DNA of 64,000 nucleotides from Parcubacteria group bacterium (GCA_041659505.1 JBAZYF010000001.1:101475-165474); one strand, 5' to 3'; numbered from the stretch's first letter, positions 362 through 57,528 are shown. Made by a program: numbers and translations. The notes: generated from the letters alone by a model not told the origin.

Positions 362-1336
362 TTATTCACTTTGGATACTTTTTTCTTGCTTGACTTTTCT
401 GCTTACCGGGATAGAAAAGCTAAAAATAGAACCAAGACCTTCTACTGAATCAAACCAAATTTCTCCCCCCAACTGACCAATTATGTTTTTAGAGATGTAC
501 AGACCCAACCCGGTCCCCTCTGTCTGATATTTGACAATGTTATCACTACGAAAAAATTTATCAAACACACGTCCGTGCTGCTCAAGCGGTATCCCGACGC
601 CATTATCTTTAATGCTGAAAATGACAAATTCTCCTTTCTTGAGAAGTTTTATCTCAATTTTTCCATGGTTAGTAGTATATTTAATTGCATTACCCAGAAG
701 ATTCTCCACTACCATTTGTAGTTTTTCCGGATCACCAAAAACCAATGGAACTTTTTTGGTATCACTAAAAATTACTTCGATAGATTTTTCCTTGGTTAAT
801 GGAGAGACGCCAGTAATCGCTCCTTTCGTAATTAATACAAGATTGGTAGGCATTCTTTTAATGATGAGCCTCCCTTGATCGATTCTTGCTACATCTAAAA
901 GATCATTGATTAATCTGGTCATCTTATTGCTGAGTGTATTGATATTTTCAATGCTTTCACGCTGCTTTCCGTCGATTTTTTCCTTGCGAAACTTGCACAA
1001 TAACAACTCTGTTTCCCAGCGGATAGCAGAAAGTGGGGTGCGTAACTGATGCGAAGCAACAGAAACAAATTCGCTTTTCATTTTATTTAGCTTTATCATT
1101 TGTTCCACCATAGTAATCACAACATTGCCCACAACCAAAACAACGATCACCACGAAACTTTCTGCCACAACTAAGAGCTCGGGACTATCATAATTCTTTG
1201 AAACATAGAAAGTCGCTGTCATTATTACTACAGCAACAACACCCATCATAATAAACAAAAACCCAGGGGTCTGCCAAAATTTTACCCCCAACTCACGCGC
1301 TTGTTTTTTTAAATTCAAATCATTGACGATCCACAT
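362..1336 (-). CDS. Sensor histidine kinase with an N-terminal TM region, a HisKA domain (H-box SHQLRTPL) and a HATPase_c domain (N box GNAIKYT, G1 DNGVGI, G2 GTGLGL).
   Basis: The 324 aa ORF carries canonical HK motifs. It lies immediately upstream of, and on the same strand as, the response regulator at 1-281, so it is probably a two-component operon. Confidence 0.85.
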   Translation of the reverse strand: MWIVNDLNLKKQARELGVKFWQTPGFLFIMMGVVAVVIMTATFYVSKNYDSPELLVVAESFVVIVVLVVGNVVITMVEQMIKLNKMKSEFVSVASHQLRTPLSAIRWETELLLCKFRKEKIDGKQRESIENINTLSNKMTRLINDLLDVARIDQGRLIIKRMPTNLVLITKGAITGVSPLTKEKSIEVIFSDTKKVPLVFGDPEKLQMVVENLLGNAIKYTTNHGKIEIKLLKKGEFVIFSIKDNGVGIPLEQHGRVFDKFFRSDNIVKYQTEGTGLGLYISKNIIGQLGGEIWFDSVEGLGSIFSFSIPVSRKVKQEKSIQSE

Positions 1337-1412
1337 ATATCTTTTGTTTTACTTCGCTCCGCCGTATCCGCCAGCTGGCGGAGAAGAAGAGCTATTTTTA
1401 TTTTGTAATTAA

Positions 1413-1421
1413 ATTATACCA
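1413..1421 (-). promoter_or_regulatory. Candidate extended -10 promoter (TGgTATAAT on the minus strand) for the HK-RR operon. A perfect 14 bp palindrome CCGCCAGCTGGCGG at 1368-1381 sits in the 5' leader.
   Basis: The reverse complement of 1413-1421 is TGGTATAAT. It lies ~77 nt upstream of the HK start at 1336. The palindrome is read directly from the sequence. Confidence 0.35.
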
Positions 1422-1508
1422 TAAAAAAATTAAAAAGTAGAGCACGCAACTAGAAAAGTTCTCCGATGCTAAACCTGCCGCATATAATCCAACCAGCAGA
1501 TCCCATTC

Positions 1509-3146
1509 TCACTCAACAGCAAGACCACTAGGAACACTGGGTGGAACCGTGTCCGCTCCTTGCAATTCATAGGCGCCGATATCATAGGCACCGCCTTGGG
1601 GACGGAGGAATGGTGAAGTGAATCCGGCACTGTTGATGGAAAGATTATAGGGACTGCCGAGGGTGGCGCCGGTGTTGATGGTGGGGCCTGATATGGTGGC
1701 GAAATAGTTTGTATTAGGAAGCATATTGGTGCCGTAGGTTCCATTAAAGCCGGTGGGAAGGGTGCCTCCGGTAAAGTTGGGGTCGGTGGTTTGGGCGGAT
1801 GCTTCCCAGGTGAGGACGCCGGCGCGATTATAACTCGTTCCACTACTGATGTGCGTGTCCGATAAACCAGAAGATCGATACACTAAATTGTTCGAGTGTG
1901 TCATAACATTATACTGATCGATAACCGGAATAAGATCATCGCCATAAACAATATTGTTCCGGAAATTGACTTCTGGTTCTCCGGTGTTTACACCAAAAAA
2001 TCCAATTGCGACAACGGCCTTAAAGTTTGTATTTTCATTCCCGGTTGAATAAATTGTATTATTATAGACATTAAAAACACTGCCCGTGTAATCATACCCG
2101 CCAGCAAGAGCAAACTCTGCTCCGTTTCCATTAGCATTCGTGATGCCATTATTGTAGATCAAGTTATTATAAAATGAAGCTGTTTCTGACAGACCTTGGA
2201 CATTAGTAATTGCAACGCCGTATAAAACATTTCCGCTGATAAGATTATTTCTAGCGATAAAATTATTCGGCGCCCCATTTTCCCCTTCCGGAGAAGTTCT
2301 GACAACTATTCCATAACCATTATTATTGATAAGCGTCGAGTATTCAACAGTAACATTGTCAACGTCATTGGCCATTTCCAGTCCACAGCCAGCTCCCAAT
2401 GCAGAACCGTTGTCCCGAGATACGCAATTCCTGATAAGCACACCGTCTATCTTGTTGCCGGGATAACCCCACGGAGCATACATGGCGATTCCTTCATGAT
2501 TGTTATTATGAAAGCTGGAGTTGAGAATTGATAAGTTGCTAGTAACTATGCCGGGGTTAGCCGTAGATATGACGTTTATGCCATAACCCCAATGTCCAGT
2601 GACGTTTGAATCTCCCGTATCCATAATATCGTGTACATCCACATTGTCGATCATGATGTTGGTTATATTCTCTGTGGCACTATTTCCAATCAAAATTCCT
2701 GAATTCCAATAATCATTCCCGTCCAGTTCAAATCCTCTGAATATCGTATTGCTAGTCGAGAGATCAACCATGCCATATGCGCCATTCGAATGATCTCCAA
2801 TGGCCTCAAATTTGGCTCTGGTTCCACTACCATAAGTTTCACCGTCATAGGTCACATTAGCTATGCCTATAGCTAAGACTCGTGATCCAGTTGGAGCAGC
2901 CCAGATATCTTGCGATCGGAAATAGACCGTGTCTCCATTGGCTAAAGTTACTGCTCCTGACCAGTTCGGCATTCCAGGGCAATGCGCCCAAGCATTTGCA
3001 TCATCTAGTCCAGAGAGAGCATCATTACCTCCGTTTTTGACATAGTAGGTGGCGGCACTAGCTTTAGCACTCATGCCAAAAATTGCAATAAACAAAATTG
3101 CTAGGAAAAAGATTTTTATTTTTGGATTTTTGATTTTGAGATTCAT
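1509..3146 (-). CDS. Secreted right-handed parallel beta-helix protein, array paralog P1 (545 aa), DUF1565-like.
   Basis: Signal peptide MNLKIKNPKIKIFFLAILFIAIFGMSAKASA followed by ATYYVKNGGND. The middle is Asn-rich and beta-helix-like (NN, YNN, FRNN motifs). The conserved C-terminal module is ...TWEASAQTTDPNFTGGTLPTGFNGTYG...GAYDIGAYELQGADTVPPSVPSGLAVE-stop. Confidence 0.85.
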   Translation of the reverse strand: MNLKIKNPKIKIFFLAILFIAIFGMSAKASAATYYVKNGGNDALSGLDDANAWAHCPGMPNWSGAVTLANGDTVYFRSQDIWAAPTGSRVLAIGIANVTYDGETYGSGTRAKFEAIGDHSNGAYGMVDLSTSNTIFRGFELDGNDYWNSGILIGNSATENITNIMIDNVDVHDIMDTGDSNVTGHWGYGINVISTANPGIVTSNLSILNSSFHNNNHEGIAMYAPWGYPGNKIDGVLIRNCVSRDNGSALGAGCGLEMANDVDNVTVEYSTLINNNGYGIVVRTSPEGENGAPNNFIARNNLISGNVLYGVAITNVQGLSETASFYNNLIYNNGITNANGNGAEFALAGGYDYTGSVFNVYNNTIYSTGNENTNFKAVVAIGFFGVNTGEPEVNFRNNIVYGDDLIPVIDQYNVMTHSNNLVYRSSGLSDTHISSGTSYNRAGVLTWEASAQTTDPNFTGGTLPTGFNGTYGTNMLPNTNYFATISGPTINTGATLGSPYNLSINSAGFTSPFLRPQGGAYDIGAYELQGADTVPPSVPSGLAVE

Positions 3147-3159
3147 TAGAAATTTTAAA

Positions 3160-4911
3160 TTATTCCACCGCTAGTCCGCTTGGCATATTCGGTGGAATCG
3201 CGTCAGATCCATGATATTCATAAGCACCAATGCTTGGAGGATTATTTATGGATTGTCCTAAATAATCCGTTGCCAGTCCCACATCGATTCCTGTCCATTT
3301 TGCGGGGGATGGAGCCGTTAGATTATAATCACCACCAGAAAAATTAAATAATAGAGGGTCAGAAACAGAACTATTAGCATCATACCCCAATGTGTTCCAT
3401 TGTAAAAATGTTTTACTTCCCCCATCATCTTCGATGGCCCATTCAGATGTGCCCCTATTAACATTGCTGGCCGGAAAGTACAAATTATAATTAATCACCG
3501 AGTTACTAACTGACCCTAAATACACAAGCCAATTTAAATTAGGGAGATTGTCGCTAACTACGATATTATTTTCAATGATATAGCTATCTAATTGGCCTAT
3601 TGAATATATGCCTATCCGACTGTCTGTTATGATCGTGTTATTATATATATAATTTTCTCCTCCTGGCGTAGCAATGGGAAAAATACTTAGATTACTAGTC
3701 CAACCATCAGAATTGCCGCCGTACAAAATATTGTAGTAAATTTTGTTATTATAAAAGGACGAGGCAAGTTGTTCAGGTGCTAATTGAATGGTATTTTGCA
3801 AAGTGTTGATATAATTTCTATAGATATTATTATTCGACCCATCGTGACAGGAACCGACATAATGAACAAATCCCCGGCACATCCCAGTAATATTATTTTC
3901 ATATACACTTGAGTTGTTTAAAGCTTGCGTCCCGATGCCTTCCGTATCTGTCCCACCTGACCAGCCCCAATATGTATAGGCGAAATCAATGTCATAATCA
4001 TTTCCGTATGTTCTCCAGATATAGGGGGTATTTTTGGCCTGAGAGCAATGAGTTATCGCATTAGATGCGATAGTTGCTCCCATAAAAGCACCCGCGTCAC
4101 CTTGAGTAGCAGTGTTAGCAGTTCCAAGCTCTATGCTATTTTGGACATAGCTAAAATTATTATCCGTGATACTAATTCCCGTGGATATGGCATTGTTGGT
4201 AAAAATCTGTACGCCTTGTATGATATCATCGAAATCAGAATTAGTAACTAGGATGTAATCATTATGAGAACCAGCAATGTTGGCAGTATAGACGCCATTG
4301 CCATATCTTCTAAAAGACAATCCATCAATAGTTATATAGCTATGAGAACCTAAGTTTATACCATACAAACGAGTATACTGAATAATGTGATCAGCCGGTA
4401 TCCCACTGGTTGGTTTATAGTAATTTTTCCATCCGCTTTCCCAGTATACATTTCCATAATTACATTCTGTGTCTCTGCCATATCTTAGTGGCACATCATC
4501 CTCATAGATTGCATTATTAGTCACCGCCGTTGTGCTATATACTCCAGCCACCGGATCATTGGCAGTCCACTCGGTAATTGTGACACTCCCATCCAGAATA
4601 GCCTTGCCTGTCCCATAAGAATTAATAATGATAGGATTCCCCTCTGTGCCAGAAGCGCCAACAGTAACTGTTCCATAATATGTCGTCCCACCTTTCTGCG
4701 AATAAGTATTGCCCGCCACCCACGATACTTCCGCCCAAGTTTTAAAAGGGCCACTAGCTCCGCAAGTTATAGTTGTACCATTGCCACTGCTTCCACAAGT
4801 TGGATCGATGTAGACCGTGGCAGCACTAGCCTTAGCACCAAAGCTAAAAAGGCCACAAAATATTAATAGACTTAGAAAAATTAATTTAGAATTTAGTAAT
4901 TTAGACTTCAT
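3160..4911 (-). CDS. Secreted beta-helix protein, array paralog P2 (583 aa), divergent subfamily.
   Basis: It has the same signal peptide style (…FGAKASA then ATVYIDPTCGSSGNGTT…PFKTWAEV). The cap and middle are different. It shares only the GAYEYHG motif and the terminal tail IPPNMPSGLAVE with the others. Confidence 0.8.
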   Translation of the reverse strand: MKSKLLNSKLIFLSLLIFCGLFSFGAKASAATVYIDPTCGSSGNGTTITCGASGPFKTWAEVSWVAGNTYSQKGGTTYYGTVTVGASGTEGNPIIINSYGTGKAILDGSVTITEWTANDPVAGVYSTTAVTNNAIYEDDVPLRYGRDTECNYGNVYWESGWKNYYKPTSGIPADHIIQYTRLYGINLGSHSYITIDGLSFRRYGNGVYTANIAGSHNDYILVTNSDFDDIIQGVQIFTNNAISTGISITDNNFSYVQNSIELGTANTATQGDAGAFMGATIASNAITHCSQAKNTPYIWRTYGNDYDIDFAYTYWGWSGGTDTEGIGTQALNNSSVYENNITGMCRGFVHYVGSCHDGSNNNIYRNYINTLQNTIQLAPEQLASSFYNNKIYYNILYGGNSDGWTSNLSIFPIATPGGENYIYNNTIITDSRIGIYSIGQLDSYIIENNIVVSDNLPNLNWLVYLGSVSNSVINYNLYFPASNVNRGTSEWAIEDDGGSKTFLQWNTLGYDANSSVSDPLLFNFSGGDYNLTAPSPAKWTGIDVGLATDYLGQSINNPPSIGAYEYHGSDAIPPNMPSGLAVE

Positions 4912-4938
4912 TTTAAATTTAGAATTTAGACTTTAAAA

Positions 4939-6438
4939 TTATTCTACTGCTAGTCCTGATGGAACTGTTGGTGGAGTTGTATCTGTTCCTTGGTATTCAT
5001 AGGCGCCGATGTCATAAGCTCCGACTGGACGTAAGAATGGTGAAGAGAGTCCGGCGCTGTTGATGGAAAGATTATAGGGACTGCCGAGGGTGGCGCCGGT
5101 GTTGATGGTGGGGCCTGATGTGGTGGCGAAATAGTTTGTATTAGGAAGCATATTGGTGCCGTAGGTTCCATTAAAGCCGGTGGGAAGGGTGCCTCCGGTA
5201 AAGTTGGGGTCGGTGGTTTGGGCGGTGGGTTCCCAGGTGAGGACATCGGATCGGTTATAATTTATATTTGTCACAACATGATCGGCAATATCACTTGAAG
5301 ATCTAAAAATTAGATTATTGGAATGAGTAAGTAGACCCAGATAATCATAAACTGCTTGATAGTTGTCAGAGCATGCAATATTATTCTTGAAATTTATTAT
5401 GGGAGTACCAATGGCCCAACGCAGATTAATAGCACTATAGACATCTGCAAAGAGTGTATTATTATAAAAATTCAAAACTGTTCCCGTTAGATCACCACCC
5501 AGATAAATTTCGTTTGAACCATTACTGTAAATAAGATTATTGTTAATACCACCAGTAACAGCCACACCAGCACTATCAACATCATACACGGTTATGCCAT
5601 GATCGCCATTATTATATATAATATTATATTTTATATCTAAACCGGTAGGGCTTCCATTTTCGCCAATAATAGATATCCCATTTGAGGCTGAATTGTAAAA
5701 AGATGAAAACTCTACTATAACATTTCTCGCGTCATTTTTAATCGCCAACCCAGATCCCCACGTTGATCCATCTTGCCCAGAGTCATGGCCCGAACAATTA
5801 CGTAATATTATATTGCTTTCAATGCCGCTTCCTCCACTATATACAACAAACGCCTCGTGTCCAGTATTATATACATTCGTATTAGATATTAAAACATCGC
5901 TAACGGCCGTACTAGGCTGTGCCGACACTCTGACACCATAAACATAATTACCCTCTGGGCAAATATTATCATGCACCTGACAATCATCAATTATTATATT
6001 TGATTTGTCAGCACCATAAATAGTAATACCATCAGTAATTTGGCTGTTCATATCGACATTAAAACTCCTAACCGTAACATTACTCTGCCCGATAAAAATC
6101 ACATAAGCTAGATTGCCAGTGGCTTTAAATGTAGCCCTCGTCCCGCTTCCATATATAGATCCATCATAAATTACACCTGCAGTAGCTACTAAAACAGGCG
6201 TCGTTGCGCTTGTCCACACATCTTGGCTACGAAAATATACAGTATCCCCGCTCGTCACTGTTGCCTCCACTTTGTCAATCGTCTCCCAAGCATTAGCATC
6301 ATCCAACCCGGAAAGAGAATCATTGCCTCCGTTTTTGACATAATAGGTGGCGGCGCTGGCTTTGGCACTCACGCCGAAAATTGCTAAAAATAAAATTGTT
6401 AGGAAAAAGATTTTTAGTTTTAAGTTTTGGTTTGGCAT
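4939..6438 (-). CDS. Secreted beta-helix protein, array paralog P3 (499 aa).
   Basis: N-terminus MPNQNLKLKIFFLTILFLAIFGVSAKASA then ATYYVKNGGNDSLSGLDDANAWETI. The C-terminal module is near-identical to P1 at the nucleotide level (about 170 nt). Confidence 0.85.
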   Translation of the reverse strand: MPNQNLKLKIFFLTILFLAIFGVSAKASAATYYVKNGGNDSLSGLDDANAWETIDKVEATVTSGDTVYFRSQDVWTSATTPVLVATAGVIYDGSIYGSGTRATFKATGNLAYVIFIGQSNVTVRSFNVDMNSQITDGITIYGADKSNIIIDDCQVHDNICPEGNYVYGVRVSAQPSTAVSDVLISNTNVYNTGHEAFVVYSGGSGIESNIILRNCSGHDSGQDGSTWGSGLAIKNDARNVIVEFSSFYNSASNGISIIGENGSPTGLDIKYNIIYNNGDHGITVYDVDSAGVAVTGGINNNLIYSNGSNEIYLGGDLTGTVLNFYNNTLFADVYSAINLRWAIGTPIINFKNNIACSDNYQAVYDYLGLLTHSNNLIFRSSSDIADHVVTNINYNRSDVLTWEPTAQTTDPNFTGGTLPTGFNGTYGTNMLPNTNYFATTSGPTINTGATLGSPYNLSINSAGLSSPFLRPVGAYDIGAYEYQGTDTTPPTVPSGLAVE

Positions 6439-6441
6439 TTT

Positions 6442-8046
6442 TTAATCTACACTTAGTCCACTCGGCGCATTCGGCGCAGTTATATCCGCTCCTTGATATT
6501 CATAAGCCCCAATATCATAAGCTCCAGCTAATCTAGCAATTGGATTGTCAGTACCGGCCGTGTTGATGTTGCCGTCATAGGGACTGCCAAGTGTGGCACC
6601 GTTGTTGATGGTGGGGCCGGATGTGGTGGCGAAATAATTGGTGTTGGGAAGCATGTCTGTGCCGTAGATGCCAGTGAAACCGGTAGGAAGCGTGCCGCCG
6701 TTAAATTGCGGGTCGGTGTTTTGGGCGGTGGGTTCCCAGGTATTGACCGCAGTTGAGGTATAGTCGGTAGTTTCCGTTTTAACTAACGTTCGACCAAGAG
6801 TTGTGGAATAAAATAAATTATTAGAATGATTCACAACTGGCGCTCCATCGATGAAAAGCTCTGTAAAATTACCGGCATACAAGATATTATTCTTAAAATT
6901 TACTTCTGCACCTTCTAGATTAGCCCACAAGCCTAAATTAACAAGACGAGCTGAATTCGTACAGGCCTTAGTCAGGGAATAAAAAGTATTATTGTAAATA
7001 TCAAAGACAGTGCCAGCCCCAAAAGCATCATCCGTGGCATTGCTACTTATGACAGAAAACTCAGCACAGTCCCCAATGCTCGGTTGACCATTTTCGTAAA
7101 GTAAGTTTCCATAGAAAGCACCTGACATAGTAAGTGCAGATGGGCTATATATGCGGATACCCGTATCAGCATTATTGTATATAACATTATATCTAACAAT
7201 CATGTTTATCGGGGCGGAAAAAACATTTTCCCCGCCTTCATAATCAGGCGAGGTTCTTACCAAAATTCCATCATGAATATTATCATACGCCCTGTTATAT
7301 TCGAGCGTAACATTTTTTGAATCATTAACGATAGAGAAACCTTCTAAATTATTGTGCGATATGCAATTTCTTACTAAAACAGTTTCGTTTTGGTTACCTG
7401 GCGTATTCCAACTAGCATAAACATCTATCCCGGTAGCATAGAGACAATCATATGTTTCAGTGTTTAATATTTGCACATTACTAGTTTTATGTCCTCCACT
7501 ATTGGAGACGATAATTCCATATCTGCCTGTATTGTGCACCGTACAATTATCAACGGTAATACCTGAGATGTCTTTGTCAGCAACATAGCCTATCCCGATA
7601 CCATCAAGCGAAGTTTGATCATTAGAATCTATATCAAACCCTCTAAAAATAATGTTACTTTCATTTAGGTCGGCAGTACTCCAATTGTTATACGAAGAGA
7701 CAGCATTTGATTTAAATTTAGCTCTTGTTCCTAATCCATAAGTAGCTCCGTCATAAATAACACCGCTAGTAGCATGCAACACGACTCCGGAAGTAATACT
7801 GGATTCCCACACATCTTGCGAACGAAAATAAACCATATCCCCGCTGGTCACTGTCGCCTCTACTTTAGCAATCGTCTCCCAAGCATTCGCATCATCCAAT
7901 CCCGAAAGACTATCATTGCCTCCGTTTTTGACGTAATAGGTGGCGGCACTGGCACTTGTACTCAAAACGAAAATCCCACTAAAGATAATTAGGCCAAAAA
8001 GGATTAAATTAAAATTTAGGAATCTAGTTTTCATTTCAAAATTCAA
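6442..8046 (-). CDS. Secreted beta-helix protein, array paralog P4 (534 aa).
   Basis: Same conserved cap. The C-terminal variant is ...DGNINTAGTDNPIARLAGAYDIGAYEYQGADITAPNAPSGLSVD, shared with P5. It is only 3 nt from the P3 start. Confidence 0.85.
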   Translation of the reverse strand: MNFEMKTRFLNFNLILFGLIIFSGIFVLSTSASAATYYVKNGGNDSLSGLDDANAWETIAKVEATVTSGDMVYFRSQDVWESSITSGVVLHATSGVIYDGATYGLGTRAKFKSNAVSSYNNWSTADLNESNIIFRGFDIDSNDQTSLDGIGIGYVADKDISGITVDNCTVHNTGRYGIIVSNSGGHKTSNVQILNTETYDCLYATGIDVYASWNTPGNQNETVLVRNCISHNNLEGFSIVNDSKNVTLEYNRAYDNIHDGILVRTSPDYEGGENVFSAPINMIVRYNVIYNNADTGIRIYSPSALTMSGAFYGNLLYENGQPSIGDCAEFSVISSNATDDAFGAGTVFDIYNNTFYSLTKACTNSARLVNLGLWANLEGAEVNFKNNILYAGNFTELFIDGAPVVNHSNNLFYSTTLGRTLVKTETTDYTSTAVNTWEPTAQNTDPQFNGGTLPTGFTGIYGTDMLPNTNYFATTSGPTINNGATLGSPYDGNINTAGTDNPIARLAGAYDIGAYEYQGADITAPNAPSGLSVD

Positions 8047-8062
8047 ATTAAAAAATTTTAAA

Positions 8063-9937
8063 TTATTCTACGGCCAGTCCGCTCGGCGCTCCGGGCGCGG
8101 TTGTATCCGCTCCTTGATATTCATAGGCGCCAATATCATAAGCTCCAGCTAATCTAGCAATTGGATTGTCAGTACCGGCCGTGTTGATGTTGCCGTCATA
8201 GGGACTGCCAAGTGTGGCACCGTTGTTGAGGGCATTGCCGGAAGTTATTTTGAAATAGTCGGTGTTGGGCACTATGTTGGCTCCATAAGTGCCGGAGAAT
8301 CCAGTTGGCAAAGTTCCGCCGGTAAATTGTGGGTCGGTGTTTTGGGCGGTGGGTTCCCAGACTGTAGTGACTGATCGATCATAGGTACTAGCCACCCACT
8401 TCTCACCAGCTACCGTATTCACATCTGAATACATATTGCCACCTTCATCGCGATAGACTTTGAGATAATTTGCTGAAACTTCATAGATATAAAATAAAGA
8501 ACCATTGAGATCGGGTGAGCTAAATCCTGTCCATTTCACAAAATTACCAACACTAAACAAACTGGTCCAATCACCTCCGCCAACTTTGGTAAAATACATA
8601 TAATCCCCCACGATGGATACCGTAACCACAGTCGAAGAAATTGGGATACTATCGTATGCAGCATCCCTAATGACCGCCAAAGAAGAACCGTCAGAACGAT
8701 AAATTAAATTGCTAGAATGAGTGAGCCAATGATGGCGATCATCTACGGCATAGCTATCGGAAGTATAAATTATATTATTTTTAAAATTAAATACTGGCGT
8801 TCCAAAAATATTTCCTCCGTATTCTGCAACAGCCATACCCGTGCCATAGCTACCATCATTATAAATAGTGTTATTATAAAAACTAAAAACGCTTGATGAG
8901 TAGTTAGCATTAGACACTGATATGCCAGGAGAGTTGTTATAAATAATATTTCCATAAAATGACCCACTCAAAATCTGACTATAATTATCTTGGATGAGAA
9001 TTCCTGAATCATTGTCATAAAGTTCATTATATCTGACAAGCATATTATTAGGTCCGCCATTACCCACCCCTCCATCGGGCGAAGTTCGTATGCTGATACC
9101 ATCTGCTTGTCCAAACAAGGCACAATATTCAACCGTCACATTATCAGAATTATTATTTATTGCTATGCCCATCCCAACACCCGTTCCAAGGACATCGGTC
9201 CCATTATCATGTACCTTACAATTCCTAATTAGCACCCTGTCAACACCATTTCCGGTGGAATTCCAACTGGGATATATAGCAATACCCTCATGATAATTAC
9301 TATAAACTTCGCTGTCTAGAATGCTGATGTCTGTGTTGATTATACCATCAGTCCGAGAACTTATTAATATTCCATACATCCATTCAGCTGATAAATTAGC
9401 TGGGTTTCCTAAATCAAAGACCTTGCAATTTTCAATAATAATATTTGAAATAGGTGCAATCAGACTTGCACTATAGCCAACAGATATTCCGGTCGTATTT
9501 ATTTGATTTCCATCAATGGAAAAATTATTAAATGAAACATCGCTTACGTTAATTTCAACCAACTCATTGGTAGCATCTCCAGTAAATCCAGTGCTGGCCT
9601 GCAATACAGCTCTTGTGCCACTGCCATAAGCAGAGCCATCGTAAGTTACGCCTTCTGTAGCTCTTAATAGTGGTACCACAGTTGATGAAGATGTCCACGT
9701 ATCCTGACTGCGAAAATAAACCGTATCCCCACTCGTCACGGAAGATTGAACTTTAGCAATCGTCTCCCAAGCATTGGCATCATCCAACCCCGAAAGGCTA
9801 TCATTGCCTCCGTTTTTGACGTAGTAGGTAGAGGCACTAGCTTTTGCACTCACACCAAAAACTGCACAAAATATAATTACCAGGAAAAAGATTTTTAGTT
9901 TTGAGTTTTGGATTTTGAGCTTCATTTTAAATTTCAA
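8063..9937 (-). CDS. Secreted beta-helix protein, array paralog P5 (624 aa), with an extra ~100 aa insert before the C-terminal module.
   Basis: Conserved cap. The insert YMYFTKVGGGDWTSLF...KWTGFSSPDLN is homologous to an insert in P8. The tail is APGAPSGLAVE. Confidence 0.85.
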   Translation of the reverse strand: MKFKMKLKIQNSKLKIFFLVIIFCAVFGVSAKASASTYYVKNGGNDSLSGLDDANAWETIAKVQSSVTSGDTVYFRSQDTWTSSSTVVPLLRATEGVTYDGSAYGSGTRAVLQASTGFTGDATNELVEINVSDVSFNNFSIDGNQINTTGISVGYSASLIAPISNIIIENCKVFDLGNPANLSAEWMYGILISSRTDGIINTDISILDSEVYSNYHEGIAIYPSWNSTGNGVDRVLIRNCKVHDNGTDVLGTGVGMGIAINNNSDNVTVEYCALFGQADGISIRTSPDGGVGNGGPNNMLVRYNELYDNDSGILIQDNYSQILSGSFYGNIIYNNSPGISVSNANYSSSVFSFYNNTIYNDGSYGTGMAVAEYGGNIFGTPVFNFKNNIIYTSDSYAVDDRHHWLTHSSNLIYRSDGSSLAVIRDAAYDSIPISSTVVTVSIVGDYMYFTKVGGGDWTSLFSVGNFVKWTGFSSPDLNGSLFYIYEVSANYLKVYRDEGGNMYSDVNTVAGEKWVASTYDRSVTTVWEPTAQNTDPQFTGGTLPTGFSGTYGANIVPNTDYFKITSGNALNNGATLGSPYDGNINTAGTDNPIARLAGAYDIGAYEYQGADTTAPGAPSGLAVE

Positions 9938-9945
9938 ATTGAAAA

Positions 9946-11538
9946 TTATTCCACCGCCAGTCCGCTCGGTGCCCCAGGTGCTGTTGTATCAGCTCCTTGG
10001 TATTCATAAGCCCCAATGTCATAAGCGCCGACTGGACGTAGAAAGGGAGAAGCTAATCCGGCACTATTGATGGAGCTATTGAAAGGACTGCCGAGGGTTG
10101 CGCCGGTATTGATAGTTGGCCCTGCGGTGGTGGCAAAATAATTAGTGTTGGGTAGCATATTTGATCCGTAGGTACCAGTAAATCCGGTGGGGAGGGTACC
10201 GCCGGTGAATTGCGGGTCGGTGTTTTGGGCGGTGGGTTCCCAATCGCCGATATTAGCACTTGTATATGTACTATTTTGAGTCCAAGCTAATGCACCCGCT
10301 GAAGGTCTGTAATAAATATTATTGGTATGTTGGGATGTTGTTAGTTGTGCGCCATAATCATAAAAACAACGAGCTGCCAAATCGCAATAATAAATATTAT
10401 TTCGGAACTCTATGCCGGAAGCATTACTACCTCCTTCATAAATTCCAGCGCAACCAAACATACTCGTGCTACCAGGAGAGTAAATTGTATTGTTATACAT
10501 CTTAATTGATTTGTCATGATAATCTATGCCACTCAATGCAATAGAAGCATCAATAAGTATATTGCCATAGAATGCGCCAGAACCATAAAAGTGAGGGAAG
10601 TCAAAATAACCGCTCGTAGAAAAACCAGTCCCCTGCATAAGATTATGCCTTATAATAAAATTATCCGGGTACTCATCTGGTCCGGTATAGTCTGGGCCGT
10701 AATTCAAAACAGCTATAGCTGAACCGCTTACAGTATTGTACTCAATGGTTATATTGTCCGAATCATTACCGATATCAATAGGATGAGTACTGCCACCAGC
10801 CTGCCCAACATCATACACGGTATTTCCTCGAACAAGCGCCATATTAACTCTATTGCCAGCGACACCCCAATTTGGATAAACAGCAATACCTTCATGCCCC
10901 GCTTCATGAACTATATTATTAGTCACCGTCACGTTGCTAGTTGTATGACTTCCGCGCGCTCCCACAAGAATTGCATAGTAGTAGGATGGATTAGGACTGT
11001 CTGTCGTGATGCCATTAATAATCTCACAATAATCCACAGTGATATCGGTAATGTCCCCCGACGGAGTTGGGCTAGTCCCGCCAATATACACACCACCGAG
11101 AGATAGCTCATTGCTATCAACCAAAAACCCCCTAAAAGTGACATTGCTTGTGTAAATTTGCACCACGCCATAACCAGCGACTCGGGACGTGGCTTGTAAT
11201 TTCGCTCTTGTTCCAGATCCGTATGTCGCCCCGTCATAAATCACCCCCTCCGTACAATTAAGCACGGGGTCTGCTCCTGTCCACGTATCCTGCGATCGAA
11301 AATACACAGTATCGCCACTCGTAGCAGAGGAGCTAACTTTGTCAATCGTCTCCCAAGCATTAGCATCATCCAACCCGGAAAGAGAATCATTGCCTCCGTT
11401 TTTGACATAATAGGTGGCGGCGCTGGCTTTGGCACTCAAGCCAAAAAAACCACAAAATATAATTACCAAAAAAATAATTTTGAATTTAAACTTGCTTGCC
11501 CCGGATGAGCAAAGCAATTTTTCGGAGTGTTTTTGCAT
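9946..11538 (-). CDS. Secreted beta-helix protein, array paralog P6. The ORF is open to 11607, but the start is most likely the Met of MQKHSEK... at 11538.
   Basis: ...KFKFKIIFLVIIFCGFFGLSAKASAATYYVKNGGNDSLSGLDDANAWETI... The conserved C-terminal module ends APGAPSGLAVE. The longer ORF would overlap the upstream ATPase stop at 11549. Confidence 0.8.
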   Translation of the reverse strand: MQKHSEKLLCSSGASKFKFKIIFLVIIFCGFFGLSAKASAATYYVKNGGNDSLSGLDDANAWETIDKVSSSATSGDTVYFRSQDTWTGADPVLNCTEGVIYDGATYGSGTRAKLQATSRVAGYGVVQIYTSNVTFRGFLVDSNELSLGGVYIGGTSPTPSGDITDITVDYCEIINGITTDSPNPSYYYAILVGARGSHTTSNVTVTNNIVHEAGHEGIAVYPNWGVAGNRVNMALVRGNTVYDVGQAGGSTHPIDIGNDSDNITIEYNTVSGSAIAVLNYGPDYTGPDEYPDNFIIRHNLMQGTGFSTSGYFDFPHFYGSGAFYGNILIDASIALSGIDYHDKSIKMYNNTIYSPGSTSMFGCAGIYEGGSNASGIEFRNNIYYCDLAARCFYDYGAQLTTSQHTNNIYYRPSAGALAWTQNSTYTSANIGDWEPTAQNTDPQFTGGTLPTGFTGTYGSNMLPNTNYFATTAGPTINTGATLGSPFNSSINSAGLASPFLRPVGAYDIGAYEYQGADTTAPGAPSGLAVE

Positions 11539-11548
11539 TTTTTTATTC

Positions 11549-12730
11549 TTACCGAATCTCCCCGCCCCAGATATAGTCGAAGAAGTTCGGCACAATCTGC
11601 CGACCAATCAGCCGGTACTTTTTCAGCCCGGCAGTCCGAGCTAAATTTTCCAGTTTCTTTTTGTCAGTTTCAATTGGTGTTTCTTTTACTTCCAATCCAA
11701 CTTTTTCATCAAGTACAAAATCAATCTCCCGACCGTTTTTGAGAGAATAATATTGCAACTTGCCCTGCTGGCGCAATTGATTGAAAATAGCATTTTCAAA
11801 TTTTGAACCGCCATTCAGATCCGCTAGGATTCCCGCCAGGCCATTGTCGCAAAAATAAATCTTTTGAGCTTTCACAATTTCTCGATCGAAACTTTTTGTA
11901 TAAATCGGGACTCTCTGGATTAAATAAGTTTTTTCGAAAAGATCCAAATAGCTGACTACTGTTGGACGAGAGAGATTGGAAAGACGTGCTAACTTGGAAT
12001 AATCCAGTTTTGTTCCAACGCGACCGGCTAACATTTTTAACAAATTATAGATATTCTGTTCGTTCCTAAAATCAGCCAAAAATTTAATGTCGATGTTGAG
12101 ATATGAGCTAATGATATCTCTAAGCAAATCCTTCTTTTCTTCCTCTGTATCGGCCAAAACCACTTCGGGAAAACCGCCAAATTCAACATAATTTTCATAG
12201 TAACTTCTTACTCGTTCATGCTCAATCGGATTGGCCTTTTTTTCCTGCCATTTCTCAGCTTTAAGATAGAAAACCTTATGAAAAACCAAATATTCTCCAA
12301 AATCCAAGGGATAGATTTCGAATATTTTTTTGCGCCCAGCCAGTGATTCACTGAAAAGATTTTTCAGATAATAGGAACTCGATCCGGTTACGATAAACTT
12401 CACATCAAAAGTATCGTATAAATATTTCAGAATACTAGCGATCGCTGGAAACATTTGAATTTCGTCTATTGCCAAATACATACGATCAGACATTGACAAC
12501 CCCTTGCTGGCAAGTTCCTTGAGAATGTTGTCATAATTTTTTTGATTAAACAGCGCCCGATTATCCACTCGCTCCAAATCGAGATAGAGTTTATTTTTTG
12601 AAGGAATGTCTTCCAGCAATTGATTGAGCAGTGTGGTCTTTCCTGTTCGGCGCATACCGGTAATCACGGTTATTTGCCTTGATTTGAGATGTTTTTTCAG
12701 TTCGGGATAAATTTTGCGCTCTAAAAACAT
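11549..12730 (-). CDS. AAA+ superfamily ATPase (COG1373/DUF4143 type) embedded in the beta-helix array.
   Basis: Walker A GMRRTGKTT, Walker B LAIDEIQ, and a sensor segment IVTGSSSY. The C-terminal half is of DUF4143 type. This is one of two such ATPases in the window; the other is at 33885-35126. Confidence 0.8.
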   Translation of the reverse strand: MFLERKIYPELKKHLKSRQITVITGMRRTGKTTLLNQLLEDIPSKNKLYLDLERVDNRALFNQKNYDNILKELASKGLSMSDRMYLAIDEIQMFPAIASILKYLYDTFDVKFIVTGSSSYYLKNLFSESLAGRKKIFEIYPLDFGEYLVFHKVFYLKAEKWQEKKANPIEHERVRSYYENYVEFGGFPEVVLADTEEEKKDLLRDIISSYLNIDIKFLADFRNEQNIYNLLKMLAGRVGTKLDYSKLARLSNLSRPTVVSYLDLFEKTYLIQRVPIYTKSFDREIVKAQKIYFCDNGLAGILADLNGGSKFENAIFNQLRQQGKLQYYSLKNGREIDFVLDEKVGLEVKETPIETDKKKLENLARTAGLKKYRLIGRQIVPNFFDYIWGGEIR

Positions 12731-12767
12731 AGATTTTTACATTAATAATTACTAAACTATATATATA

Positions 12768-12796
12768 ATATTACATTTAGTATCAATATTTGTCAA
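12768..12796 (-). promoter_or_regulatory. Sigma70-like promoter for the embedded ATPase. On the minus strand the -35 is TTGACA (12796-12791), the spacer is 17 nt, and the -10 is TAATAT (12773-12768).
   Basis: Hexamers were read on the reverse strand. The -10 lies ~38 nt upstream of the ATG at 12730. A 13 bp palindrome TGCTACTGTAGCA sits adjacent at 12797-12809. Confidence 0.45.
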
Positions 12797-12827
12797 CTGC
12801 TACTGTAGCATGGCTATTTTAAGCCTT

Positions 12828-14480
12828 TTATTCTACAGACAGTCCGCTAGGCGAAGCTGGCGGAGTTATCTCCGTGCCTTGATATTCATAGGCGCCGATA
12901 TCATATGTGCCAACTGGACGTAGAAAGGAAGTCTCCAGTCCGGCGCTGTTGATGGAACTGTTGTAGGGACTCCCAAGGGTGGCGCCAGTATCGAGAGCGT
13001 TGCCAGTTGTAATTTTAAAATAATCTGTATTAGGAAGCATATCGGTACCGTAGGTGCCGGTGAATCCGGTGGGGAGGGTGCCGCCAGTGAATGCGGGGTC
13101 GGTGGTTTGGGCGGTGGGTTCCCAAGTCAAAACGCCTGAACGGTTATAATTCACAGTGCTTGCAAATGTGGTAACGTGATTATCACTTGAACCGGATGAC
13201 CGAAAAATTAGATTGTTTGAATGTGTCAGGAAATTACCAGGGCAAGTAAAATCATCACTCCCACGACATTCTGCGATTCCTTCCCAGTTACTCGTGTAAA
13301 TCGCGTTATTTTTAAAATTAAACACAGGGATTGGAGTTCCTGCGATATCGCAGGAAGTATACTCGCAAGCCACAACTGGTTGCTTATACACGCACGGATT
13401 GTTAGTGCTGTAGATAGTATTATTATAATAACTGAATACTGATCCGCTATAATCACCATTAGGAATATCAATATCATGACATGCACCACTGCCACTCCAT
13501 CCAACACCAGTATCAAAGAATAAATTACCATAATATGCACCTGTCGAACCTTCCAGTCCCGCATCCCCGGTGCGATAAGACAACCCGAATCTATTATTAT
13601 AAATCATATTATAGCGCACAATTAGATTTGATACTGATTCGGAAGTGTCATAATTAGATGTTCCAACTATAATGCCCGTACCATTATCATGTATATTCGA
13701 GTACTCAATTGTAATATTATCTGATCTGTTCATGATATAAAAACCTTGGTCAAATCCAGAAGCATAAGTGATACCATCGCCACGACCAACATCGTATACT
13801 TCGCAATTTCTGACTGTTATTCTATTAATCCTACAGCCTGTCCTGTTCCAAGAATTATATAATGCAAACCCCTCATGACCCGTGCTGTACACCTTTGTAT
13901 CAGTAATTAATACATCGCTAACAACAACATCATTCGCGCTGATCCCTCCGACATAAAAACCATAAGCCCAATGGCCGGTAGGGACTAAGCTATTATGCAC
14001 ATCACAAGAATCAACAACTATATTACCAAAACTCACAGGAGCTCCCTGTCCGATGGCAAAAATGCATAATATCTGATCATTCCCATCTACATCAAATCCA
14101 CGAAAAACAACATTAGATACGTTTATTTTAACAACCGCCATATTATCAGCGGATGAGCTTGTTGCTCTCAGCGTGGCTTTTGCGCCAGAGCCATATTCAT
14201 TGCCAATATATGTTACCCCGGACACCGCAGTTAAAACAGTTGCTGCCCCTGTCCACGTATCCTGCGATCGAAAATACACAGTATCGCCACTCGTAGCAGA
14301 AGAGCTAACTTTAGCAATCGTCGCCCAAGCATTGGCATCATCCAATCCAGAAAAAGAATCATTACCTCCGTTTTTGACATAGTAGGTGGCAGCCTCAGAA
14401 TTCTTGACCATGCCAAAGAAGCTGCAAAATATAATTAAGTTAAAAAAGATTGCATTAAAAATTTTAAATTTAATTTTCAT
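12828..14480 (-). CDS. Secreted beta-helix protein, array paralog P7 (550 aa).
   Basis: MKIKFKIFNAIFFNLIIFCSFFGMVKNSEA then ATYYVKNGGNDSFSGLDDANAWATI. The C-terminal module ends TPPASPSGLSVE. Confidence 0.85.
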   Translation of the reverse strand: MKIKFKIFNAIFFNLIIFCSFFGMVKNSEAATYYVKNGGNDSFSGLDDANAWATIAKVSSSATSGDTVYFRSQDTWTGAATVLTAVSGVTYIGNEYGSGAKATLRATSSSADNMAVVKINVSNVVFRGFDVDGNDQILCIFAIGQGAPVSFGNIVVDSCDVHNSLVPTGHWAYGFYVGGISANDVVVSDVLITDTKVYSTGHEGFALYNSWNRTGCRINRITVRNCEVYDVGRGDGITYASGFDQGFYIMNRSDNITIEYSNIHDNGTGIIVGTSNYDTSESVSNLIVRYNMIYNNRFGLSYRTGDAGLEGSTGAYYGNLFFDTGVGWSGSGACHDIDIPNGDYSGSVFSYYNNTIYSTNNPCVYKQPVVACEYTSCDIAGTPIPVFNFKNNAIYTSNWEGIAECRGSDDFTCPGNFLTHSNNLIFRSSGSSDNHVTTFASTVNYNRSGVLTWEPTAQTTDPAFTGGTLPTGFTGTYGTDMLPNTDYFKITTGNALDTGATLGSPYNSSINSAGLETSFLRPVGTYDIGAYEYQGTEITPPASPSGLSVE

Positions 14481-14507
14481 TTCAAATTAAAAATTTTAAA
14501 TTTCAAA

Positions 14508-16424
14508 TTATTCCACTGCCAGTCCACCAGGCACACTGGGTGGAACCGTGTCCGCTCCTTGCAATTCATAGGCTCCAATATCATAGGCTCCGCCTTGGGG
14601 ACGCAAGAATGGCGAAGCCAGTCCGGCGCTGTTGATGGAGCTGTTAAATGGACTGCCGAGAGTCGCTCCAGTATCAATGGTTGGTCCTGTGGTGGTGGCG
14701 AAATAATTAGTGTTGGGTAGCAGATTGATGCCGTAGGTGCCGGTGAAACCGGTGGGAAGGGTGCCGACGGTGAACTCAGGGTCGGTGTTTTGGGCGGTTG
14801 GTTCCCAGGTAGCGACGGCTGAACGATTAAAATTAGTCATCGTCCCCTTTACTCCAGTCACAATATTAATATCCGTATAGGGTATTGAAGTTTTTGCAAC
14901 TCTCAGCTGATTTTCCGTCACCGCATCAACCATAAACACAATATTATTAAGTGCCGGCGTGGTAAAGCCAGACCATTTAAAAAAGTTATAATGTGTAAAA
15001 ATAGTTGTCCAGTCCGTACCGCCTGATTTGGTAAAATATGTATATGTTGCATCGTTAGAAACAGTTACTTCCGTCTCTGGAATAACCTCCGCGTAGCTCA
15101 TATTAGAAATGGCAGCCCCAGTCGATCCTGATGCTCTGTAAATAAGATTATTGGAGTGAGCTGTAATTTTAGTAAGATGATCATAAACTCCAATAGCATT
15201 ATTACTATAAATAATATTATTTTTAAAATTAACTATAGGGTAGTTCGCCATAGCGTTAGAGTATTGGAAAAAAGACACAATCCCATAACTTGTGGCTGAT
15301 ACGGTATTGTAAATAGTGTTGTTATAAATATCAAACGTACTTGCTTCGTATTCGCCATTACTAACTTCCAAATCGATGCCGGCATTATTGTAAAATATGT
15401 TGCTATAAATATTAGCATTAAGTGAGTGCACCAGGCCTATCTGCGTAGAAAAACCACTTCCCGTATTTTCATAAATCAGATTATTTCTAATTATCAAATT
15501 ATCTGGTGATCCGGCCGCAGCTTCCGGCGATGTCCGCTCCCAGATTCCCGTCATGCCATTATCACGGATACTATTAAATTCAACAGTGACATTATCTGCA
15601 TTGTTAGCGACAAGCACTCCTACTCCGCCATTGCCATATGTGCCGTTAGCATTGGTATAGGTCGGCCTAGTACCGCAATCATGAACATTATTTCCCCGCA
15701 CTGACACACCATCAACTCTCGGGTTCGTTCTTACCCATGCTGTGTAAATAGCAACACCTTCATGATAGGTATAGGCAACTTCATTATTGATTATATTAAA
15801 ATTAGTATGTGTGATATTATCATCGCCACCAGCAGCATAAAGTCCATATTGCCAGTTAGGTTGCCAAGTTTCATTAAGAATATTAGGATCAGTAATGCTG
15901 TGATTACCTCCGACAAGATTCGGATTGCCTGTGTGATGAATATAACAGTCCTTAACTGTAATATTGTCGATGGCCTTTCCGGCTCCATATCCAACATAAA
16001 GGCCACCACCGGTCCCCATTGAACTACCATCTACCTCAAATCCCTTGAAAACCACATCACTTTCATTGATAACGACTAAGCGATGCGTGTCCGCCTCAAG
16101 GCCAGTTATACCCTTTAATTCTGCCTTGACGCCAGCGGATGGCCACTCATTTCCAATATAAGAAACCCCTCTCTCGGCAGTCAAAAATGGGGCCGTTGAA
16201 AATTCCCAAATATCGCCGGAATTAAAATACACCATGTCCCCGCTAGTGACTGTCAATTGAACTTTGGCAATCGTCTCCCAAGCGCTGGCATCATCCAATC
16301 CAGAAAGACTATCATTGCCTCCGTTTTTGACGTAGTAAGTCGCAGCCTCTGAATTTCTTGCCATTCCAAAGATTCCGCAAAACAAAATTAGAAAGACGAA
16401 AATTTTTAATTTAGTTATTTTCAT
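14508..16424 (-). CDS. Secreted beta-helix protein, array paralog P8 (638 aa), with the same insert domain as P5.
   Basis: MKITKLKIFVFLILFCGIFGMARNSEA then ATYYVKNGGNDSLSGLDDASAWETI. The last ~80 nt are near-identical to P1 (...RPQGGAYDIGAYELQGADTVPPSVPGGLAVE). Confidence 0.85.
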   Translation of the reverse strand: MKITKLKIFVFLILFCGIFGMARNSEAATYYVKNGGNDSLSGLDDASAWETIAKVQLTVTSGDMVYFNSGDIWEFSTAPFLTAERGVSYIGNEWPSAGVKAELKGITGLEADTHRLVVINESDVVFKGFEVDGSSMGTGGGLYVGYGAGKAIDNITVKDCYIHHTGNPNLVGGNHSITDPNILNETWQPNWQYGLYAAGGDDNITHTNFNIINNEVAYTYHEGVAIYTAWVRTNPRVDGVSVRGNNVHDCGTRPTYTNANGTYGNGGVGVLVANNADNVTVEFNSIRDNGMTGIWERTSPEAAAGSPDNLIIRNNLIYENTGSGFSTQIGLVHSLNANIYSNIFYNNAGIDLEVSNGEYEASTFDIYNNTIYNTVSATSYGIVSFFQYSNAMANYPIVNFKNNIIYSNNAIGVYDHLTKITAHSNNLIYRASGSTGAAISNMSYAEVIPETEVTVSNDATYTYFTKSGGTDWTTIFTHYNFFKWSGFTTPALNNIVFMVDAVTENQLRVAKTSIPYTDINIVTGVKGTMTNFNRSAVATWEPTAQNTDPEFTVGTLPTGFTGTYGINLLPNTNYFATTTGPTIDTGATLGSPFNSSINSAGLASPFLRPQGGAYDIGAYELQGADTVPPSVPGGLAVE

Positions 16425-26082: not shown

Positions 26083-26143
26083 AATCAGTGAAATCACTTT
26101 AATCAGTGAAAATCAGTGGTTCTGATGTTTAGTGGTTCAGGCA
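26083..26143. repeat. CACTGATT-rich repeat (family 6) immediately 3' of uvrA2. It contains AATCAGTGGTTCTGAT.
   Basis: AAAATCAGTGAAATCACTTTAATCAGTGAAAATCAGTGGTTCTGATGTTTAGTGGTTCAGG. A related element with terminal inverted repeats is at 39925-40026. Confidence 0.6.
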
Positions 26144-57099: not shown

Positions 57100-57528
57100 G
57101 GGGATGCCTGGTTTCGACAGGTTGTACGTTTAAAATATGCAAGCCGAGCTCTTATAGCTGCTCGTAAAACCGCTATTAAAGTTATAAGTGTAAACTTACT
57201 AACAAAAGCAAAAACTGCGATTGCGCAAGCTTTCACAGTCAACTTTGCTACCGCTCTTGCCTAATACTAGTCTTTACTAGTTAGGGCACCAGCCATCGGA
57301 CTTATTTTCGCCCAAGAGGTAAAATCCGGTGTCACATCATTGGGCTAGCTCTCGATATTTTTCTTGACGATCAAGAGCAAAACTAAAGTCAGGGATAGAT
57401 CGGAAAGGTTTTGTTCGCCATTCACTTTTCGATCGACCCGCCTCGTGCGGAAAATAAGGCGGAATAAGCTTGTAGTATATTTTGAATGAATAATTTTGGA
57501 CGCGAGTTCAACTCTCGCCATCTCCACA
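57100..57528 (+). ncRNA. ssrA: tmRNA (SsrA).
   Basis: The 5' end GGGGATGCCTGGTTTCGACAGG and the 3' end GGACGCGAGTTCAACTCTCGCCATCTCCAC match the conserved tRNA-like ends (E. coli: GGGGCUGAUUCUGGAUUCGACGGG ... GGACGCGGGUUCAACUCCCGCCAGCUCCACCA). The internal ORF ends ...FATALA-TAA, as tag peptides typically do. It lies immediately downstream of smpB. Confidence 0.8.

Follow-up and report, generated by a model that had tools for sequence, protein, structure and literature searches.

Mosaic terminal modules in a tandem array of beta-helix genes from a Parcubacteria group bacterium: a probable case of short-tract gene conversion

Overview and proposed mechanism

In the 64,000-nucleotide (nt) stretch of DNA from a Parcubacteria group bacterium that was analysed here, hereafter termed the window (GCA_041659505.1 JBAZYF010000001.1:101475-165474), eight tandem paralogs designated P1 to P8 occupy positions 1509-16424 on the minus strand and code for right-handed beta-helix proteins with Sec-type signal peptides. 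Each gene is assembled from three parts: a 5' module of ~250 nt specifying the signal peptide and N-cap, a diverged core of ~900-1300 nt, and a 3' module of ~320 nt. The 5' and 3' modules are 70-86% identical at the nucleotide level across all of the paralogs but the divergent P2, and the cores are 40-60% identical for every pair, with synonymous divergence (dS) at saturation. Five pair-specific tracts of near-identical sequence (T1 to T5; Table 1), all situated inside these N- or C-terminal modules, give the ends of the genes a mosaic character that very probably reflects short-tract gene conversion, that is, concerted evolution of the terminal modules within a tandem beta-helix paralog family. 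We regard it as ordinary conversion among family members, not as programmed antigen switching; no new mechanism is implied.

In the mechanism that we favor, the terminal modules would retain enough identity for homologous recombination, presumably of the RecA type, and paralogs misaligned on the same or sister chromosomes would undergo repeated, non-reciprocal conversion over ~80-170 nt. Such events would overwrite patches of one gene's end with those of another to yield ends that are both concerted and mosaic; the C-terminal end of P1 would be the product of a P3 patch and a P8 patch, and the N-terminal end of P6 that of a P3 patch and a P7 patch. The cores would be too diverged to recombine; they would instead be passed on vertically, each kept by purifying selection as a functional specificity of its own.

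Near-identical tracts in the terminal modules

The pair-specific exact repeats that mark these tracts measure 105, 103, 100, 63, 53 and 41 nt, in modules whose identity is otherwise 70-85%. Every tract has two breakpoints, the intergenic junctions are uncrossed, no tract spans or enters a variable core, and no core segment is common to any pair. Outside T1 the identity between P1 and P3 falls to 72.7% on the 3' side and to 62.6% on the 5' side.

An earlier note on this DNA had described P1 and P3 as almost base-for-base identical over their 3' ~260 nt (1540-1800 vs 4960-5230). A genuine tract, T1, does lie there and contains the string quoted in the note, but it extends for 169 nt and stops short of the 3' end, and identity over the full ranges is only 87.2%. 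A second block of near-identity, claimed for the 5' ends of the same two genes, did not withstand analysis: identity is 71.0% over 2900-3146 vs 6220-6438 and 81.9% over the first 160 nt (84.7% over 150 nt by BLAST), no better than the 82.5% found for P1 and P5, and the permutation test described below is not significant for this pair. The reported match between the tail of P1 and P8 was borne out, at 85.5-86.6% identity over the last ~82 nt compared with 66-84% for other pairs, and corresponds to T2. Three stronger tracts, T3, T4 and T5, had been overlooked.

Table 1. Near-identical tracts, array genes and the interposed ATPase gene, in window coordinates
Feature	Position	Strand	Description
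T1 (P1-P3)	1630-1798 vs 5057-5225	-	168/169 nt identical; exact runs of 105 and 63 nt
T2 (P1-P8)	1534-1618 vs 14533-14617	-	79/85 nt identical
T3 (P4-P5)	6479-6608 vs 8100-8229	-	~130 nt, with a 100-nt exact run
T4 (P3-P6)	6269-6371 vs 11336-11438	-	103/103 nt identical; N-terminal module
T5 (P6-P7)	11271-11349 vs 14243-14321	-	~79 nt, with a 53-nt exact run
P1	1509-3146	-	545 amino acids (aa); Pfam Beta_helix 27.0 bits; C-terminal module a P3-like patch, then a P8-like patch
P2	3160-4911	-	583 aa; divergent subtype, resembling the others only in the signal peptide and last ~70 nt
P3	4939-6438	-	499 aa; partner in two tracts, with P1 (C-terminal module) and P6 (N-terminal module)
P4	6442-8046	-	530 aa when counted from the ATG start (6442-8034); identical to P0021
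P5	8063-9937	-	also delimited at 8063-9925; extra insert of ~95 aa, common to P5 and P8
P6	9946-11538	-	530 aa; N-terminal module a P3-like patch, then a P7-like patch
AAA_14/DUF4143 ATPase gene	11549-12730	-	between P7 and P6, not a family member; Pfam AAA_14 5.7e-33, DUF4143 2.8e-29
P7	12828-14480	-	550 aa; identical to P0002
P8	14508-16424	-	638 aa; heads the array, with GroEL upstream

Statistical support and synonymous divergence

The tracts were evaluated with a GENECONV-style test, in which the longest unbroken series of matching polymorphic sites is compared with that obtained when the order of sites is permuted per module, among 7 or 10 aligned paralogs. T1, T3, T4 and T5 each reached a global permutation p<0.001, the matching polymorphic sites numbering 104/105 in T1, 62/65 to 66/68 in T3, 54/54 in T4 and 52/56 in T5. 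Recombination was also indicated by the pairwise homoplasy index (PHI) test (C module, z=-11.4; N module, z=-4.0; p<0.001).

Synonymous sites carry the argument further. Within the tracts dS is 0.024 for T1, 0.071 for T3, 0.044 for T4, 0.21 for T5 and 0.26 for T2, whereas the same pairs diverge at 0.95-3.4 in the rest of the module (T1, 0.95; T2, 1.03; T3, 1.03; T5, 1.51) and other pairs show median values of 0.84-1.4 over the same columns. Synonymous divergence is in this way 15-40 times lower in the tracts than in their flanks or in the same columns of other pairs. Codons that specify the same amino acid tell a similar story, in that 95-98% of them are identical within a tract for the one pair involved, compared with a median of 51-64% for the others. 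The earlier note had named equal synonymous divergence inside and outside the blocks as grounds for abandoning gene conversion; the two are clearly unequal, and its general proposal of segmental conversion among the array members is upheld by pair-specific, two-breakpoint tracts that are significant by both permutation and PHI.

The mosaic nature of a single gene is well illustrated by P1, for which the comparison also takes in Q1 to Q6, the six paralogs of a second array on a 152-kb contig of the same genome (L002 2793-13873). The nearest neighbor of P1 changes from segment to segment: Q4 in N1, P5 in the core (weakly, with a bootstrap of 0.53), P3 at 99% in C1, and P8 at 85% in C2, the bootstrap being 1.00 for both the P1-P3 (C1) and P1-P8 (C2) pairings. 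In the favored account conversion is mostly an intra-array process; similarities between the two arrays amount to 85-90% over 70-150 nt and are older. The graded dS of the tracts, from 0.02 to 0.26, indicates recurrent events over time, with T1, T3 and T4 the youngest and T2 appearing as an older or weaker tract; in this sense of graded tract ages, and in this sense only, the conversion can be called 'ongoing', as the note had it.

Comparison with a P6 ortholog

A further line of evidence comes from R1, an 85%-identical ortholog of P6 that is the first gene of a different array on a Logan contig from another sample (L088). Between P6 and R1 the core is 86% identical at the nucleotide level (nonsynonymous divergence [dN] 0.064, dS 0.62, dN/dS ~0.10), compared with 80% for the N module (dN 0.113, dS 0.83), 75% for the C module (dN 0.131, dS 1.28) and 57% for the signal peptide (dN 0.563, dS 0.94). 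The core of P6, which is only 44-47% identical to those of its paralogs, is on the comparison with R1 a stable unit under purifying selection, not a hypervariable one. The converted regions show the opposite relationship. In the T4 stretch P6 is 95-100% identical to P3 and 82-88% identical to R1, and in the T5 stretch it is 93% identical to P7 and 75-77% identical to R1; paralogs within the genome are in these regions closer than orthologs between genomes, as judged from this single ortholog. Between orthologs, the 'conserved' ends have evidently been replaced more rapidly than the 'variable' core, a pattern that reads as a signature of repeated overwriting by paralogs. Because orthologs diverge faster in the terminal modules than in the 'variable' cores, the modules are poor markers of orthology.

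By parsimony, with R1 as the one outgroup, the SSSATSGD...TWTGA patch of P6 presumably came from P7. Additionally, a tail of the RPQGGAYDIGAYELQG type is carried by P1, P8 and R1, and a near form of it occurs in single-copy homologs; the variant ends must therefore be older than the split between the species, and are undergoing reassortment.

Several considerations weigh against the gene-conversion interpretation or parts of it. The pairwise permutation p for T2 is 0.0025 to 0.034 and its global p is not significant, and the site-permutation null presumes that polymorphic sites are exchangeable. The PHI test is weakly significant in the core as well (z=-3.4, confounded by saturation), such that there may have been old recombination in the cores. 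T3, T4 and T5 rest on a single assembly. Finally, with R1 as the single ortholog, polarity and timing depend on one outgroup that may itself have been converted.

Alternative explanations

The alternative that fares best, although we consider it unlikely, is that the conserved ends serve as recombination arms through which whole beta-helix cores are swapped between the two arrays or imported from related cells. Were this so, core swapping would generate a combinatorial repertoire of glycan-recognizing or glycan-degrading proteins that set the host range of an episymbiont, and the short patches would be traces left by exchanges that were aborted or only partly completed. The difference in composition between this array and that of L088, the difference between the ends of the P6 core and those of its ortholog, and the weak PHI signal in the cores are all compatible with such swapping. 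The earlier note had likewise proposed that cassettes may be exchanged, the conserved 5' and 3' blocks providing the homology arms; in the data, all tracts reside inside the terminal modules and no exchange of cores was detected.

Programmed antigenic or surface variation of the vls, pilE/pilS, msp2 or tprK type represents a second alternative, in which the ends would act as arms that move core cassettes to an expressed copy. Borrelia vlsE, Neisseria pilE/pilS, Anaplasma msp2/p44 and Treponema tprK each combine one expression site with truncated, promoterless donor cassettes; variable segments are copied in these silent-cassette systems, variation arises within populations, and msp2/p44 has conserved ends around a variable center. 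The Parcubacteria array resembles them in its segmental, non-reciprocal conversion among genes for surface or secreted proteins, and the presence of conserved ends around variable cores in a tandem secreted-protein array of a probable episymbiont, among whose members conversion does occur, might be taken to favor the analogy. Yet the array differs in nearly every diagnostic respect, making this second alternative quite improbable. All eight genes are intact, complete open reading frames (499-638 aa) with a start codon, a Sec-type signal peptide and a stop codon, and none is truncated or distinctively promoterless. Family members are separated by spacers of 3-27 nt, and no terminator-like sites were found between the array genes; there is therefore no expression site with silent cassettes. 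A search of the same intervals for separate promoters yielded none that was convincing. The array is presumably co-transcribed. In addition, only conserved segments within the arms have been copied, the cores are unshared in every pair, and the P6 core evolves at a dN/dS of ~0.10 against its single ortholog.

Signs of a switching apparatus were likewise lacking in the array. A scan for homopolymers showed that A/T runs of >=8 and G/C runs of >=7 are both absent, and Tandem Repeats Finder reported only imperfect AT-rich 7-nt repeats across the array. The only dinucleotide repeats are two short (TA)5 runs, at 3642 (P2 core) and 12758 (upstream of the ATPase gene), and both fall outside the promoters and 5' coding regions of the array genes. 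No repeat-controlled switch was thus found in the array, unlike Mycoplasma vlhA with its GAA repeats or Helicobacter pylori babB with its CT repeats, and no adjacent recombinase or reverse transcriptase was found. The consensus is also invariant in separate assemblies. Exact-protein look-ups for P3, P6 and P4 that sought strain variants or chimeras gave no match, nor did a degenerate DNA pattern for the P6 core searched against metagenome contigs; a C-terminal pattern searched against the contigs recovered only the second array of the same strain. The comparison with vls, vlh and tpr that the note had drawn is accordingly not supported.

A third alternative holds that the blocks are remnants of young duplicates, arising by recent tandem duplication or unequal crossing-over, whose cores have since diverged rapidly. 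The tandem arrangement of the genes is in keeping with such an origin, and the array is organized differently from that of L088, so unequal exchange has probably reshaped the arrays. As an account of the tracts, however, this history is very unlikely, since saturated core dS and tract dS of 0.02-0.07 coexist in the same gene pair, and since the P6 core evolves slowly (dN/dS 0.1). The tracts themselves, at 80-170 nt, stop before the neighboring gene, and their two breakpoints together with the uncrossed spacers argue against unequal crossing-over as their origin.

A fourth explanation, that the mosaics are chimeric joins or collapsed repeats produced during short-read metagenome assembly, is highly improbable. 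The source is indeed a short-read metagenome-assembled genome (MAG), and three of the five tracts lack a second assembly. A Logan contig assembled with k=31 (L001), 100% identical to the window up to 16305 and thereby confirming the first ~120 nt of P8, breaks inside a 32-nt exact repeat common to P4 (7904-7935) and P8 (16303-16334); its end in an inter-paralog repeat shows how such arrays fragment short-k assemblies. The MAG, however, was assembled with k=141, and the longest exact repeat, 105 nt, is shorter than this. Both flanks of every tract copy are unique, and a mis-join would swap flanks but would not create identity. Moreover, a separate ENA assembly (L004) is 100% identical over window positions 888-4640, which take in the end of P2, the whole P1 mosaic with T1 and T2, and the start of a histidine kinase gene. 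The P1 protein is identical in the NCBI, JGI and ENA records of the Parcubacteria MAG. The second array is the same in the ENA and JGI assemblies, the L002 array region being identical to L090 over 10 kb, and consensus contigs are 100% identical wherever a second assembly covers either array.

Finally, strong purifying selection on conserved protein modules with no recombination at all is barely tenable. Protein-level conservation of the modules does extend across phyla, and their GC content at third codon positions (GC3) is elevated even in single-copy homologs, which shows a family-wide constraint. The contrast in dS between tracts and flanks, and the pair-specific codon identity that goes with it, nevertheless reject purifying selection alone, and it is the modules, more than the core, in which orthologs have diverged.

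The GC3 pattern merits a comment of its own. The terminal modules are richer in GC3 than the cores (C module 0.40-0.56 vs core 0.27-0.40), and the same contrast between ends and core is present in most single-copy homologs of other phyla (the loci compared were L003, L005, L086, L087 and L089, together with the array locus L088). It is therefore a property of the family, not a signature of conversion, and GC-biased gene conversion was ruled out as its cause on these grounds.

Relationship to characterized gene families

With short-tract gene conversion as the preferred reading, the array most closely resembles the H. pylori bab and Staphylococcus aureus lpl families, by analogy of architecture and exchange pattern, and not vls, vlh or tpr. 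Among the babA, babB and babC genes of H. pylori, intragenomic conversion in the 5' (~60-240 bp) and 3' regions gives rise to chimeric genes (PMC4552749). Like the array genes, the bab paralogs, which with related Hop genes encode outer-membrane proteins, are full-length and expressed, and a middle portion that has diverged separates their homologous 5' and 3' regions (PMC4552749). The two differ in that the bab loci are dispersed and the array is tandem; in that bab conversion moves a CT-repeat phase-variation switch and alters adhesin expression, whereas no repeat switch was found in the array; in that the Bab proteins are adhesins, whereas the array proteins are predicted to be secreted, enzyme-like beta-helices; and in that no chimeras segregating between isolates were encountered for the array.

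In the lpl family of S. aureus, recombination at a conserved block has resulted in incongruent phylogenies for parts of one open reading frame (Tsuru & Kobayashi 2008, PMC2568036). The lpl genes are, like the array genes, tandem paralogs in which conserved blocks alternate with variable ones. Their conserved block, however, is located in the middle of the reading frame, and the variable 3'-intergenic-5' unit spans two genes, whereas the array genes have conserved ends and a variable core. A duplicated 3'-intergenic-5' junction unit of the lpl type was considered for the array and rejected: junctions J54 and J43 are 100% identical in the C module and then only 57% identical across the spacer.

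Gene conversion in bacterial multigene families is already well known; no paper linking it to bacteria of the Candidate Phyla Radiation (CPR) was found in the library searched. The array offers a clean and quantifiable case of short-tract gene conversion in a CPR bacterium, and homologous recombination evidently acts on homologies of ~100 nt in a genome of ~0.8 Mb.

Protein fold and putative function

All eight proteins begin with an N-terminal Sec-type signal peptide that ends AKASA|ATYYVKNGGND. The cutoff for the Pfam Beta_helix family (PF13229) is exceeded by 4/8 of the genes. Modelled with AlphaFold2 on the basis of 76 homologs, P3 folds as a right-handed parallel beta-helix, with a predicted local distance difference test score (pLDDT) of 93.3 and a predicted template modelling score (pTM) of 0.90. 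In Foldseek searches this model matched GH136 lacto-N-biosidases, PL9 pectate/rhamnogalacturonan lyases, alginate C5-epimerases, phage tailspikes and RbmB at E 1e-8 to 1e-5 and 10-16% identity to solved structures, with a Foldseek probability of 1.00 to the PL9, GH136 and AlgE structures. The family profile also matches the N-terminus of the PL9 rhamnogalacturonan lyase (E=1.8e-5). The array proteins thus have in common with PL9 and GH136 enzymes, alginate C5-epimerases and tailspikes both the right-handed beta-helix fold and an N-terminal motif; they are set apart from known beta-helix carbohydrate-active proteins by the low identity just given and by their amplification to 14 copies, which has a counterpart in none of 79 GTDB loci.

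The closest homologs elsewhere (45-48% identity) are single-copy genes within exopolysaccharide or O-antigen-like loci, where their neighbors include Wzy_C, GT4/GT2 glycosyltransferases, polysaccharide deacetylase and the exosortase EpsH. A conserved neighbor of ~400-445 aa with no Pfam match lies directly downstream of the homolog in L005, L086 and L089; in L003 and L087 a polysaccharide deacetylase gene intervenes, which places this neighbor one gene further on. Shortly after it comes a GT4 glycosyltransferase gene in all of the homolog loci except L003. Among the 79 GTDB genome loci fetched no arrays were found, the family being single-copy per locus wherever it was detected, and only the Logan contig L088 carries another array. 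The best genome matches are to Geobacter and Smithella rather than to CPR bacteria, which hints that the family was acquired horizontally. Taken together, the modelled fold and the exopolysaccharide-locus context of the homologs suggest that the family is most likely glycan-directed and has been amplified in a small genome. The stably kept cores would then be a plausible starting point for understanding how such episymbionts handle the glycans of their hosts or surroundings.

Array organization and neighboring genes

The array, which belongs to a 656-kb contig of the MAG, is flanked by the histidine kinase gene (362-1336) on one side and GroEL (16739-18415) on the other, and no further family copies were found elsewhere in the window. 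Together with the second array, which is followed by genes for small, FN3-containing secreted proteins, it brings the family to 14 genes of ~1.7 kb each, or ~3% of the known sequence (at least 808 kb of contigs). The 3' end of the divergent P2 is 87.5% identical to that of Q3 of the second array over 72 nt. The ATPase gene is possibly inserted into the array; it is preceded by a promoter-like site of its own (TTGACA-17-TAATAT, 12796-12768), and 10 nt separate its end from the start of P6.

The insert common to P5 and P8 lies near the end of the core (8393-8683 in P5, 14841-15122 in P8) and is old, the two copies agreeing at only 40/97 residues. At 624 aa, the metagenomic homolog P0016 is as long as P5, with which it aligns almost end to end at 55% identity; judging from this alignment, it probably carries the P5/P8-type insert as well. 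Imperfect AT-rich 7-nt tandem repeats, AATTTAG x8.6 (4883-4940) and AAATTTT x7.7 (14459-14509), run from the intergenic spacer into the opening codons of P2 and P7, where they encode the lysine-rich n-region of the signal peptides.

The paralogs P1 to P8 all stop directly after a P-x-x-P-[SG]-G-L-[AS]-V-[ED] motif, which we take to be like the start of the FN3 domain in other secreted proteins; descent of the family from a longer beta-helix-FN3 ancestor is a speculative extension of this likeness. A Shine-Dalgarno motif within the conserved 'GLAVE' codons was also considered, and was discarded on account of its inconsistent spacing to the true ATG starts.

A short distance upstream of GroEL and the array, the minus strand carries two UvrA paralogs (19641-22448 and 26129-29281) and a UvrC gene (23892-25262). 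The window yielded no tRNA genes; a tmRNA gene is present at 57100-57527 on the plus strand, and its tag peptide is AIAQAFTVNFATALA.

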